This document shows, piece after piece, positions 13,276-17,203 of a stretch of DNA of 41,043 nucleotides. The stretch is from a virus (taxonomy: Duplodnaviria; Heunggongvirae; Uroviricota; Caudoviricetes). Every line of letters starts with the position of its first letter. The first letter of the stretch is position 1. A program made the position numbers and the translations under genes. The DNA lies in IMG/VR virus record IMGVR_UViG_2563366998_000006. One strand, written 5' to 3'. The notes beneath the pieces were generated by a model, which had not been told where the DNA came from, did no database searches, and worked only from the letters and a program-made list of their open reading frames with translations.

Positions 13276-13632
13276 ATGCGTGATATGTATGAAGTAATGG
13301 ATCGTTGGGGAGCTTGGGCTGCTTCAGACAATAGCGGAGTGGACTGGCAGCCGATAGCGGCTGGTTTCAAGGGACTTTTACCTCATGGCAAAAAGTCACG
13401 GATTCAGTGTGATGATGACGAAGGCATCATGATAGACAGTTGTGTGGCTCGGTTGAGAAGGTATAAACCAGAGGAATATGAGCTCATCATCGCCCACTTT
13501 GTTATCGGTATCTCATTACGCACTATTGCGAAGAAGAGAAAATGCTCTGATGGCACAATTAGGAAGGAACTGCAAACTGCAATGGGGTTTGTTGACGGCT
13601 GTTTAGCAATGTTAGCTTATAGTATGGCATAA
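13276..13632 (+). CDS. Late-gene antiterminator Q (QuuD family)
   Basis: 118 aa from the ATG at 13276; MRDMYEVMDRWGAWAASDNSGVDWQPIAAGFKGLL...KCSDGTI closely resembles DLP12 QuuD as recalled. Confidence 0.8.
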   Translation: MRDMYEVMDRWGAWAASDNSGVDWQPIAAGFKGLLPHGKKSRIQCDDDEGIMIDSCVARLRRYKPEEYELIIAHFVIGISLRTIAKKRKCSDGTIRKELQTAMGFVDGCLAMLAYSMA

Positions 13633-14826
13633 AAAATAAAATAGATTTACTGCCGATTTTTCAAAAAAGACTGGGAACTGTTTATATCCAACGTAAATAA
13701 GGCCTCCATAAAACATGGCTGATGCGAGATATTTAACAGTTCTCATCCTTTTTTTAGCTTTATCAATCAAACCTGTAATGCTACTCTTAATACTATCTGC
13801 ATTATCTTTGATTTCTTTATTTTCTTCAAACTTTAAATACTTATCGAAAGCGGACTCCACTCGAGAACGTAAGTTGTCGAATGTTTCATTGAATATCTCA
13901 ATAGAAATGTAATTGACTTTTTTTATCATCCAAAGTCCTGCGATAATCAATATTGCCTCGGTTGTTTCATTAGCCTTCACTAAGCCACCAGCAGCTATTA
14001 ATGCACCGGGAATAGTCAATGCTTTTGTCTGATTAGATGATATGAATTCGTTAATTTTACTCGTGAACTCAAGATTTTTCTCATCGAGTTCGTTAAGAAT
14101 TTTATTTACAGAAAACCTCTTTGTGTAAATCTCATATAGTTCATCATATTTTTTCCTGACGAGTTCAGTAGAGTTAAGCAAGTCAAAGAAATTGAACGTA
14201 CCATTTGCTTTAAATACTTCGTTTATGGCTGAGCGTATAACGAGCTTGCGCTCGCTTTTGTGTAAATCATTGATTTTTATTGTGTCGAGAAGCTCCTTTA
14301 TAATTTCATATTTAAGAGACGAGTTCGATAAGCGATTAATCTCGCTATATTGTAAAAAATGCGTGAGTTCGACTGTATAACTTTTGTCTTCATTGGTGAA
14401 AAATAAGACAGAGCAGTCACTGTTATGATGATCAGCAATTAATGAAAGGATATCTTTCCACATAAAGAAAATATGGATTTTTTCGATGCTTTCATTCTTA
14501 GAAGTAGGGAGTATTAACGGCGTTCCGATGATATAATTTTTCGGAAGAGCGTTTTGGGTGTTTACTCTAGACCAAAAAGACTCAACATTCTCATAAATTA
14601 TAGCGTCATCCCAAGATGAAGCTTGGCGATCTAGCCAAATTTCATTATTTTCGATGCAGGTTGTTGCCTTTTTATAACCTATAGATTGTAACAGTCTAAT
14701 TATTTCAGAACTATTTACAATAACAATGCTTTCTTCAAGACTTATGACAGTGTAGTAGCCCTCAACTCTGCTTGAGGCTCCGTTAATAATCTGCGCTAAT
14801 CTTGATAAGTCATCAGCAATTGTCAT
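13612..14826 (-). CDS. Hypothetical protein with ~265-aa soluble N-domain and two C-terminal transmembrane helices; second gene of the cargo operon
   Basis: 404 aa; hydrophobic segments ALTIPGALIAAGGLV...AILIIAGLWMI and YLASAMFYGGLIYVGY; ATG 2 nt after the upstream stop; AT-rich; 3' end overlaps Q convergently. Confidence 0.7.
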   Translation of the reverse strand: MTIADDLSRLAQIINGASSRVEGYYTVISLEESIVIVNSSEIIRLLQSIGYKKATTCIENNEIWLDRQASSWDDAIIYENVESFWSRVNTQNALPKNYIIGTPLILPTSKNESIEKIHIFFMWKDILSLIADHHNSDCSVLFFTNEDKSYTVELTHFLQYSEINRLSNSSLKYEIIKELLDTIKINDLHKSERKLVIRSAINEVFKANGTFNFFDLLNSTELVRKKYDELYEIYTKRFSVNKILNELDEKNLEFTSKINEFISSNQTKALTIPGALIAAGGLVKANETTEAILIIAGLWMIKKVNYISIEIFNETFDNLRSRVESAFDKYLKFEENKEIKDNADSIKSSITGLIDKAKKRMRTVKYLASAMFYGGLIYVGYKQFPVFFEKSAVNLFYFLCHTIS

Positions 14827-14828
14827 TA

Positions 14829-15833
14829 TTAGCTGTCTCTATATCTTTTGAGTTCATCATAATTTGCCTGACTCAATTTTATCACAATTTCGCATTTGTT
14901 GTCAGTGAGAATTACAGGCTTATTTGACTTTTCGTCTCCAATAGCTCCACGCATTATTTTCAACTTAAAATTATTGTCGTTATCTGCCACTTCAATTGTA
15001 AGCGCGCTTTCAGCTGCTTTAGGAGTTGGTTCAAATTGAGGGTCAATCTGGAAACCATTAAGATTAACAAAATCGACAAACGTTCCCTTACATTTGTGTG
15101 AATCAGTCAGGCATGAGTCAATTATTTTTGAAATATCCTCTATCTTAACGGACTTATTTCCGTGTTTATCTTTTGATTTTTTTTCCAGTAAGGATTTAAC
15201 TTCGTTGTCAATAGTATCACGCAGTACACGACCGAGTGAGTTTTTACTAGCAAAAATATCTATAGCACTGAATAATTGCTGAATGCTTCTTTTATTGTCC
15301 GAATCATGTCGGCAACCTAATGAGTCTTTGAAAAAATCGCTTTTAGATTTACCTTGCAAGAAATGTACATATGAGTCACCCTTGTTTTCTGGATAACTGG
15401 CTTCGAATAAAGTTAAATCGAACATCGCAGCCTGCCGTAAGGCATCGGTATTAATTGGATTTAATCTTGTTGGGGTCAACTTATCCGAATCAAAGTCATA
15501 GGCGCTTTGTTTATCAACCATTACGATTAGAAGTTTCCCCAAATCCTCTGGTTCGGTAGACTTATAGTGGATGAAAACAACGCTCCCCCCCTGAAGTTGG
15601 GCAACTCTCGATTCGTTATTAGCATTATGTTTAAGCTTCTCTATTATAGCTCTAGATAAATCAATGAATTCATTATTTTTATTAATGTATTTTTTTAGGA
15701 TCGTAGGAATGGATGAAGGGTTGTGATCTGAGTCTAGGAAGTTATGAAATTTGTTTTTTCGGCTAAATTTTTTCTCAATTCTGGTTATGAATTCAGATGT
15801 GACTTCATTTTTTAGATCCCAAACTTCACCTAA
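14829..15833 (-). pseudogene. 3' portion of an IS5-disrupted gene encoding a zinc-ribbon + NdpA/YejK-like protein
   Basis: Frame open from 15833 to the stop at 14829-14831 with no ATG/GTG/TTG for ~97 codons after the IS5 junction; motifs GGSVVFIHY and FLQGKSKSDFFKDSLG recall the NdpA/YejK family. Confidence 0.7.
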
Positions 15834-17028
15834 GGAAGGTGCGAATAAGCGGGGAAATTCTTCTCGGCTGACTCAGTCATTTCATTTCTTCATGTTTGAG
15901 CCGATTTTTTCTCCCGTAAATGCCTTGAATCAGCCTATTTAGACCGTTTCTTCGCCATTTAAGGCGTTATCCCCAGTTTTTAGTGAGATCTCTCCCACTG
16001 ACGTATCATTTGGTCCGCCCGAAACAGGTTGGCCAGCGTGAATAACATCGCCAGTTGGTTATCGTTTTTCAGCAACCCCTTGTATCTGGCTTTCACGAAG
16101 CCGAACTGTCGCTTGATGATGCGAAATGGGTGCTCCACCTTGGCCCGGATGCTGGCTTTCATGGATTCGATGTTGATGGCCGTTTTGTTCTTGCGTGGAT
16201 GCTGTTTCAAGGTTCTTACCTTGCCGGGGCGCTCGGCGATCAGCCAGTCCACATCCACCTCGGCCAGCTCCTCGCGCTGTGGCGCCCCTTGGTAGCCGGC
16301 ATCGGCTGAGACAAATTGCTCCTCTCCATGCAGCAGATTACCCAGCTGATTGAGGTCATGCTCGTTGGCCGCGGTGGTGACCAGGCTGTGGGTCAGGCCA
16401 CTCTTGGCATCGACACCAATGTGGGCCTTCATGCCAAAGTGCCACTGATTGCCTTTCTTGGTCTGATGCATCTCCGGATCGCGTTGCTGCTCTTTGTTCT
16501 TGGTCGAGCTGGGTGCCTCAATGATGGTGGCATCGACCAAGGTGCCTTGAGTCATCATGACGCCTGCTTCGGCCAGCCAGCGATTGATGGTCTTGAACAA
16601 TTGGCGGGCCAGTTGATGCTGCTCCAGCAGGTGGCGGAAATTCATGATGGTGGTGCGGTCAGGCAAGGCGCTATCCAGGGATAACCGGGCAAACAGACGC
16701 ATGGAGGCGATTTCGTACAGAGCATCTTCCATCGCGCCATCGCTCAGGTTGTACCAATGCTGCATGCAGTGAATGCGTAGCATGGTTTCCAGCGGATAAG
16801 GTCGCCGGCCATTACCAGCCTTGGGGTAAAACGGCTCGATGACTTCCACCATGTTTTGCCATGGCAGAATCTGCTCCATGCGGGACAAGAAAATCTCTTT
16901 TCTGGTCTGACGGCGCTTACTGCTGAATTCACTGTCGGCGAAGGTAAGTTGATGACTCATGATGAACCCTGTTCCATGGCTCCAGATGACAAACATGATC
17001 TCATATCAGGGACTTGTTCGCACCTTCC
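15834..17028 (-). mobile_element. IS5 insertion sequence, complete
   Basis: 1195 bp; terminal inverted repeats GGAAGGTGCGAATAAG (15834-15849) and CTTGTTCGCACCTTCC (17013-17028); flanked by a 4-bp CTAA duplication at 15830-15833 and 17029-17032. Confidence 0.95.
15980..16996 (-). CDS. insH: IS5 transposase InsH
   Basis: Translation matches InsH ([37 protein letters not shown]...); canonical 326-aa start is the internal ATG at 16960, the ORF track begins 12 codons earlier. Confidence 0.95.
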
Positions 17029-17203
17029 CTAATCGATAATCAAATGCTCTTGAATCATTTTTTTCAAGATTTGCTGTTACAGCACCAATAGGAAAGTACG
17101 ATTGTTTGCCCAGCACTACAACATGAGGCGTGGCACCGCATTTATCGCAAGCTACAGTTGGGTCGTCAAGAACATTGCCACATTCTAAACAAGTTATATC
17201 CAT
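17029..17203 (-). pseudogene. 5' portion of the IS5-disrupted gene: N-terminal zinc-ribbon segment
   Basis: ATG at 17203-17201; MDITCLECGNVLDDPTVACDKCGATPHVVVLGK (CxxC...CxxC); frame reads in phase across the IS5 junction into 15829 and below. Confidence 0.7.

Follow-up and report, generated by a model that had tools for sequence, protein, structure and literature searches.

A two-gene operon in a 41,043-nt stretch of tailed-phage DNA (IMG/VR record IMGVR_UViG_2563366998_000006, Caudoviricetes; hereafter the window) is, with high confidence, a copy of the known anti-phage system DS-1 that has been inactivated by the insertion sequence (IS) IS5 and that is carried as opposite-strand cargo by a lambdoid prophage. 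The operon occupies the minus strand between the prophage gene for the Q antiterminator and that for a lambda-type holin (Table 1), and we refer to its first and second genes as DS-1A and DS-1B. The identity with DS-1 rests on identity of sequence; what we propose about mechanism is drawn from PANGU type II, a defence system described separately (see below).

We compared both products with the NCBIfam models built for DS-1, using for gene 1 an IS5-free reconstruction. Over model positions 3-369 of 369, restored gene 1 matched NF053868, the equivalog for DS1_1_antiphage ('nucleoid-associated anti-phage protein'), with a score of 451.4 bits (cut-off 330; E = 2e-135). Gene 2 matched the equivalog NF053869 (DS1_2_antiphage) over positions 1-337 of 337, scoring 375.2 bits (cut-off 315; E = 3e-112). 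At the level of residues, the restored gene 1 product is WP_000355468.1 (391/391) and the gene 2 product is WP_000150292.1 over 399/399 residues of its printed part, while the restored 2393-bp operon is 100% identical in DNA to the RefSeq loci that carry these two proteins. The pair falls in the PHROGs families phrog_3767 and phrog_5023, gene 2 belonging to phrog_5023, and recent annotation by RefSeq and its Prokaryotic Genome Annotation Pipeline (PGAP) labels the two products 'nucleoid-associated anti-phage protein' and 'anti-phage protein'.

DS-1 was named by DeWeirdt, Mahoney and Laub ('DefensePredictor', Science 2026; PMC13092281; bioRxiv 10.1101/2025.01.08.631726, January 2025). Under the working ID D390 (Tables S6, S8 and S11), it is a 2393-bp transcription unit (NZ_RRVY01000002.1:220602-222994) that encodes a 391-aa protein with a zinc finger and a YejK domain, WP_000355468.1, and the 404-aa WP_000150292.1 (PMC13092281). 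The window locus shares with it the two proteins, the 2393-bp operon and the Q-holin prophage context; it differs in that IS5 interrupts gene 1 after codon 58, which presumably makes this allele non-functional. When DS-1 was cloned with its native promoter at low copy, the negative logarithm of the efficiency of plating, -log(EOP), was 7.6 for Bas1, 2.7 for Bas26, 1.7 for Bas3, 1.7 for T3, 1.0 for T5 and 0.9 for T7, and SECphi27 formed small plaques (Table S7, PMC13092281). D390 occurs 26 times, and its seven phage rows in Table S7, none of them for T4, are the complete record. Bas26 belongs to the Demerecviridae (T5-like) and Bas03 to the Drexlerviridae (T1-like). By these published data, an intact operon identical to the restored one protects against T1-like (Bas1, Bas3), T5-like (T5, Bas26) and T7-like (T3, T7) phages.

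An earlier interpretation, made from the letters of the window alone (the sequence-only reading), had seen here a two-gene anti-phage module, which the identity with the tested DS-1 proteins bears out. It had also put the module forward as a candidate undescribed one that it did not recognise as any named system. This second claim is refuted: DS-1 has been published, it was tested with identical proteins, and it has its own NCBIfam models and RefSeq labels. Nor does the proposed logic count as undescribed, since a sensor coupled to a membrane effector, with abortive infection as the outcome, is already published for PANGU type II (bioRxiv 10.64898/2026.04.06.716658). Neither protein, nor any of 47 DS-1A homologues, matched a hidden Markov model of PADLOC-DB v2.0.0 (2023; Kiwa, Zorya and Abi families included), but this null result says nothing on novelty, because the library predates DS-1. 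As a discovery, then, the locus matters little: the system already had a name, experimental validation of identical sequences, NCBIfam models and PGAP labels.

The insertion that distinguishes this copy lies within gene 1, which it splits after codon 58. The transposase open reading frame (ORF) of the element, at 15980-16996 on the minus strand, has DDE_Tnp_1 (E = 5e-35) and DUF772 domains. Removing IS5 together with one copy of its target-site duplication joined the halves of gene 1 in frame and yielded an uninterrupted 391-aa ORF running from 17203 to 14829 on the minus strand; as found, the 5′ fragment reads into IS5 and makes a 65-aa ORF. The inactivation of gene 1 by IS5, already noticed by the sequence-only reading, is thus borne out by the 1195-bp element, its 4-bp duplication and the clean ORF upon removal. 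Because IS5 cuts DS-1A so early that the sensor is lost, and because the analogous system needs both genes, this DS-1 copy should be defence-null, and DS-1B, though intact, should be inert by itself. The split gene 1 is to be annotated as an IS5-disrupted DS-1A pseudogene, and the prophage is not to be counted as carrying a working DS-1. The IS5 allele was present in 0 of 5426 complete Escherichia coli genomes, in which the best matches span the empty insertion site.

Two sigma-70-like sequences were noted, in a region where the number of such matches is not above shuffle expectation. The best of them, CTGACA-18-TAAAAT with a TG extension (14876-14905, minus strand; 10/12 positions), falls within the 3′ end of gene 1, about 50 nt before gene 2 begins, and could keep DS-1B expressed despite IS5. 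The candidate promoter of the operon itself, which precedes the gene 1 ATG by about 25 nt, is no more than a match to the consensus at 9/12 positions.

The placing of an opposite-strand, AT-rich two-gene operon in a Q-holin cargo slot also holds. The GC content of the operon is 35% (33-36%), as against 51% in the rest of the window and 51-58% in the flanks; both borders have Pfam matches (Table 1), and beyond the holin gene lie an endolysin gene and an Rz-like gene. The right edge of the slot is marked by a conserved hairpin element of about 77 nt (window 17267-17343) that is common to about 2600 E. coli genomes, including that of K-12 with its DLP12 prophage. In DLP12 (NZ_CP062249.1, 570354-577430), quuD is followed by IS5 and nmpC on the opposite strand, then by the conserved hairpin element and essD; the description as a cargo slot is accurate because K-12 shows this same layout. 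The nmpC gene and the DS-1 operon are thus both opposite-strand, AT-rich cargo in the same slot and are each interrupted by IS5, although nmpC is an unrelated porin gene and no defence system. The idea that DS-1, unlike stx or nmpC cargo, lies upstream of the late promoter and terminator was dropped, as nmpC in DLP12 is placed identically relative to the hairpin. At the other border, the 3′ ends of Q (plus strand) and DS-1B (minus strand) overlap convergently by 21 nt (13612-13632), an overlap that is also annotated in NZ_CP104371.1. With such convergent transcription, the expression of Q and that of DS-1 could be coupled.

We then consider how widely the operon and the pairing of its genes are conserved. 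Of the 5426 complete E. coli genomes, 106 (2%; 107 records) carry the restored operon, in every case with an identity of at least 99% and flanked by a Q gene, which it abuts, and by a lambda-family holin gene; a search of 50,697 sequenced phage records gave no operon match. Beyond this close circle, an exhaustive profile search returned 769 representatives of the DS-1B family at 50% identity with E <= 1e-3, 355 of them with E <= 1e-10. In all ten contexts examined, down to a profile E of about 1e-19, a gene of the NA37 family, to which YejK belongs, lay immediately upstream of the DS-1B homologue on the same strand. These contexts comprised Serratia, Pseudoteredinibacter, Pseudoalteromonas, Yersinia (where the pair is again situated between holin and Q), Pseudomonas aeruginosa, three further loci and two remote family members. 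The upstream genes encode proteins of about 350-410 aa, the sole exception in size being a 271-aa call at a contig edge (L011). DS-1A and DS-1B are a genuine pair, strictly conserved across the family, and the two do co-occur elsewhere, a point that the sequence-only reading had named among its checks.

The surroundings of the homologous pairs vary. Several of the pairs belong to prophages or defence islands, and some adjoin integrases. In P. aeruginosa (L007/L008, 5001-7422), the genes for an NA37 protein that lacks the zinc ribbon and for a DS-1B homologue of 425 aa (hhalign E = 9e-56) are found right beside a Pf-type filamentous prophage (Zot, DUF2523). The Serratia pair (L001) adjoins BstA, and that of locus L003 adjoins AbiEii and AAA_15/21 genes. 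On a metagenome contig (L012, 771-5419), a DS-1-like pair stands beside a Gabija-like OLD-TOPRIM ATPase with UvrD helicase and BrxR, a typical defence island.

Restored DS-1A begins with MDITCLECG...CDKCG, giving a CxxC...CxxC pattern at C5, C8, C19 and C22, and further on contains the motifs GGSVVFIHY and FLQGKSKSDFFKDSLG. Pfam NA37 (PF04245, the YejK/NdpA family) matched residues 64-376 at 84.5 bits against a cut-off of 24.6 (E = 1.2e-23), while zinc-ribbon models of Pfam matched below threshold only (E 0.07-0.3). The AlphaFold2 (AF2) model of the protein (mean predicted local distance difference test, pLDDT, 86.4; predicted template modelling score, pTM, 0.81) had a single significant structural neighbour, E. 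coli YejK 9be2 (E = 7.8e-14 by Foldseek), which was also matched by profile at E = 2e-19. The cysteine pattern, PF04245 and the YejK fold match, with both profile and Foldseek/AF2 checks, agree with the zinc ribbon and YejK/NdpA-like domain that had been read from the letters. The score against the housekeeping YejK equivalog NF001557 was 81.4 bits, below its cut-off of 341, and DS-1A is therefore a YejK paralogue and not YejK itself. The core of DS-1A shares fold and NA37 family with YejK/NdpA at about 19% identity; it differs from YejK in having the zinc-ribbon extension, in being coupled to an effector within an operon and in being carried by a prophage. In the alignment of the DS-1A family, 13 columns are at least 85% lysine or arginine; the conserved basic surface of DS-1A includes K79, K83, K85, R190 and K226. 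We rejected a relationship of DS-1A to Kiwa KwaB: YejK was the sole structural neighbour, and PADLOC gave no match.

DS-1B begins 2 nt after the DS-1A stop, at the junction TAA-TA-ATG. Its AF2 model (pLDDT 84.8) consists of an acidic N-terminal alpha/beta domain (aa 1-165), a long helical stalk, a hairpin, a linker and C-terminal helices. The N-terminal domain has a net charge of -9 and a pI (isoelectric point) of 4.8 and is net negative in 38 of 39 family members, an acidity that is moderate and from which DNA mimicry cannot be judged by charge count alone. The most conserved block of the family is found at aa 224-284 (...RFSVNKILNELDEK...QTKALTIPGALIA.G.L.K). Hydrophobic segments comprise a short conserved hairpin with Pro and Gly residues, among them P273 and G274 (aa 271-303), followed by a helical linker of about 60 aa and by one or two moderately hydrophobic helices (aa 365-403). 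The sequence-only reading had described a membrane-associated partner of 404 aa that starts 2 nt after the gene 1 stop, a description that the analysis supports; of the finer architecture that it gave, a soluble domain of about 265 aa with two C-terminal transmembrane helices, hydrophobic C-terminal segments are retained, whereas the AF2 model and hydropathy do not support two plain transmembrane helices. Pfam found nothing in DS-1B and 38 homologues except one C-terminal SH3_3 in a single member, and the Protein Data Bank held no relative of DS-1B by sequence.

The closest functional comparison for such a pair is offered by PANGU systems (Li et al., April 2026; bioRxiv 10.64898/2026.04.06.716658), in which a YejK-like nucleoid-associated protein (NAP) coats the chromosome, is released when phage nucleases degrade the host DNA, and then binds an acidic, DNA-mimicking 'DMK' domain of the effector. 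PANGU type II consists of the NAP Pag2A and of Pag2B, in which a DMK domain at the N terminus is combined with a membrane region at the C terminus. For PANGU-Ecu, both genes are required, each is non-toxic by itself, and growth stops upon infection at high multiplicity, much as in abortive infection; Pag2A-GFP leaves the nucleoid on T4 infection, and Pag2A binds the DMK domain with a dissociation constant (KD) of 19 nM (Li et al., bioRxiv 10.64898/2026.04.06.716658). The authors state that both the activation and the action of Pag2B are unknown.

DS-1 is like PANGU type II in being bicistronic with the same gene order, a YejK-like NAP (PF04245, E = 1.2e-23; 9be2, E = 7.8e-14) preceding a partner with an acidic N-terminal domain and a putative C-terminal membrane region, and also in its linkage to defence islands and mobile elements and its E. 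coli origin. It differs in the extra N-terminal zinc ribbon of DS-1A; the preprint mentions none for PANGU type II. With PANGU type I (Pag1A plus the GRel toxSAS Pag1B), DS-1 shares the YejK-like sensor and the proposed logic of release and binding to a DNA mimic, but Pag1B is a cytoplasmic alarmone synthetase and not a membrane protein, and DS-1B has no toxSAS domain. DS-1 probably falls in the PANGU type II cluster. What our analysis contributes is this connection between DS-1 and PANGU type II, and the large DS-1B family, with its 10/10 NA37 pairing, supports a widespread defence class that joins a 'nucleoid sentinel' to a membrane effector.

The PANGU preprint never mentions DS-1 (0 occurrences), and neither publication cites the other. 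The preprint calls NAP-based sensing 'unprecedented', though the DefensePredictor preprint of January 2025 had validated a YejK-domain defence system.

The best-supported mechanism for DS-1, each step of which we infer, is release of a sentinel from the nucleoid. In the intact system, DS-1A would sit on the chromosome by way of its conserved basic surface. A phage that degrades or displaces the host DNA would set DS-1A free, and free DS-1A would bind DS-1B at its acidic, possibly DNA-mimicking N-terminal domain. By way of the conserved stalk and the hydrophobic hairpin, DS-1B would then switch to a membrane-damaging state, so that the infected cell would be arrested or killed (abortive infection). 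We favour this model because DS-1 has the architecture of PANGU type II, a conserved basic NAP and a partner whose N-terminal domain is conserved in its acidity.

Several points weigh against this interpretation. The likeness of DS-1 to PANGU type II is one of architecture and description. The DefensePredictor study lists the YejK nucleoid-associated domain as newly validated in defence, without mechanistic follow-up of DS-1 (PMC13092281). PANGU-Ecu restricts T4 and not T1 or T5, whereas DS-1 restricts T1-, T5- and T7-like phages and has no T4 row listed. Cysteines of the zinc ribbon are present in only 23 of 47 aligned DS-1A homologues, and the ribbon is therefore an accessory module. The hydrophobic segments of DS-1B are short and borderline for transmembrane helices (Kyte-Doolittle 19-residue maximum 1.56). 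Finally, Foldseek found 0 matches to the DS-1B model at E <= 1e-3, the best being MakA, AhlB and CorA at E 0.3-1.5 and a probability of at most 0.23. Because no fold match is significant, we speak of DS-1B as a putative membrane-damaging effector, and an alpha-pore-forming toxin fold (ClyA/AhlB/MakA) or a CorA-type channel fold, for which no significant structural match was obtained, serves as a lead only. Side by side, the phage spectra of DS-1 and PANGU-Ecu are nearly complementary.

Some of these same points suggest, tentatively, that DS-1 might be no plain type II member but a mechanistically distinct branch of the PANGU-like nucleoid-sentinel defences, a separate placing that we consider rather doubtful. 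The zinc ribbon, an effector with stalk and hairpin that has no solved relative (and is faintly ClyA-like), and a spectrum roughly the reverse of that of PANGU-Ecu would together point to a trigger that replaces, or acts alongside, bulk degradation of the chromosome.

It is unlikely that DS-1 works instead by direct exclusion with survival of the cell. On that account, DS-1B, anchored in the membrane, would keep DS-1A at the inner membrane, where DS-1A would catch phage DNA on its arrival and prevent it from entering, replicating or being transcribed; such a logic would resemble Kiwa or superinfection exclusion. The restricted T1-, T5- and T7-like phages are siphoviruses and podoviruses, T5 and T7 inject their DNA slowly or stepwise, and DS-1A, judged by its family, would be a non-specific DNA binder, all of which this account would accommodate. 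It would also accommodate the complete loss of Bas1 plaques with a native-promoter, low-copy construct (-log EOP 7.6; PMC13092281), and Li et al. allow for movement of the NAP 'possibly to the cell membrane' (bioRxiv 10.64898/2026.04.06.716658). By contrast, PANGU type II, whose architecture is equivalent, responds to infection at high multiplicity with growth arrest, and its NAP starts on the nucleoid. PADLOC, with its Kiwa models, matched neither DS-1A nor DS-1B, YejK stands as the only structural neighbour of DS-1A, and the conserved acidity of the DS-1B N-terminal domain is more in keeping with a binding site that competes with DNA than with a tether.

A separate question is whether the IS5 hit was selected. 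The sequence-only reading had found the insertion compatible with counter-selection against a costly module, which would make it adaptive, DS-1 being costly or auto-toxic in this host and knocked out by selection. We find this quite improbable. Different elements have struck the 2.4-kb operon independently three times: besides IS5 in the window, IS1 lies within gene 1 of NZ_OZ547033.1 (1467219-1470385) and ISKpn26, of the IS5 family, within gene 2 of NZ_CP182203.1 (3134120-3137537). The latter two were the only IS hits among about 90 DS-1 records inspected, in which about seven further copies had lengths differing by +/-1 nt or split coding sequences, and the rest were intact. A latent toxicity is known from such systems, as DNA-binding-dead Pag1A makes type I PANGU toxic (bioRxiv 10.64898/2026.04.06.716658). 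Repeated hits by IS5, IS1 and ISKpn26 could reflect a real fitness cost. Yet at least 90% of the roughly 90 copies inspected in complete E. coli genomes are intact and at least 99% identical, and some of the 1-nt differences may be assembly errors, or else real frameshifts. Moreover, IS5, IS1 and ISKpn26 all favour AT-rich DNA. The operon contains 47 YTAR sites (19.6 per kb, as against 5.8 per kb elsewhere), a 3.4-fold density that puts 18% of the targets of the window in 6% of its length, and nmpC, an unrelated cargo in the same slot of K-12, has also been hit by IS5. As for cost, PANGU constructs and single genes were non-toxic (Li et al., bioRxiv 10.64898/2026.04.06.716658), and DS-1 with its native promoter was cloned and maintained in MG1655 (PMC13092281). 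With most copies intact, so dense a supply of YTAR sites and nmpC also struck, a neutral IS5 hit is a sufficient explanation, and counter-selection is left unsupported. The three independent IS hits in DS-1 are worth a systematic count and are by themselves no evidence of selection.

That the pair serves the phage in its native prophage, by remodelling the nucleoid or aiding the timing of lysis, with defence a by-product of expression from a plasmid, is highly improbable: it would suit the position beside the lysis cassette in E. coli and Yersinia prophages and the coupling of NAPs to lysozymes in several PANGU-like clusters (bioRxiv 10.64898/2026.04.06.716658), but DS-1 lies on the strand opposite to late transcription, is active from its own promoter region at low copy (PMC13092281), has homologous pairs outside prophage lysis regions (beside integrases, BstA, AbiEii, the Gabija-like pair and BrxR) and gave 0 matches in the 50,697 sequenced phage records.

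Table 1. Features of the IS5-interrupted DS-1 operon and its borders, in window coordinates.
Feature	Position	Strand	Evidence or remark
Antiterminator Q gene, left border of the slot	13261..13632	+	PF06530, E = 3e-47
DS-1B (gene 2), 404 aa	13612..14826	-	NF053869, phrog_5023
DS-1A 3′ fragment with stop codon, most of the NA37/YejK-like domain	14829..15833	-	PF04245, NF053868, AF2 match to YejK 9be2
Target-site duplication, 4 bp, CTAA(+)/TTAG(-)	15830-15833 and, second copy, 17029-17032	direct	fits the IS5 target YTAR
IS5, 1195 bp, transposase in the orientation of gene 1	15834..17028	-	imperfect terminal inverted repeats GGAAGGTGCGAA[C/T]AAG
DS-1A 5′ fragment, codons 1-58 plus 1 nt, CxxC...CxxC zinc ribbon, ending at the upstream copy of the target duplication	17029..17203	-	
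Candidate sigma-70 promoter of the DS-1 operon, TTGATA-16-AAAAAT	17229..17256	-	
Conserved GC-rich hairpin followed by a T-run, close to the holin gene on its upstream side, right edge of the slot	17321..17342	+	
Lambda-family holin gene, right border of the slot	17495..17821	+	PF05106, E = 6e-25

Outside the slot, between the lysis cassette and the HNH and terminase genes, we noted a 101-aa ORF with a CxxC...CxxC pattern (18859-19164, minus strand) that had no Pfam match. In the reference genome NZ_CP104371.1, no gene is annotated in the equivalent gap. This ORF may represent a further small cargo gene or may have arisen by chance.

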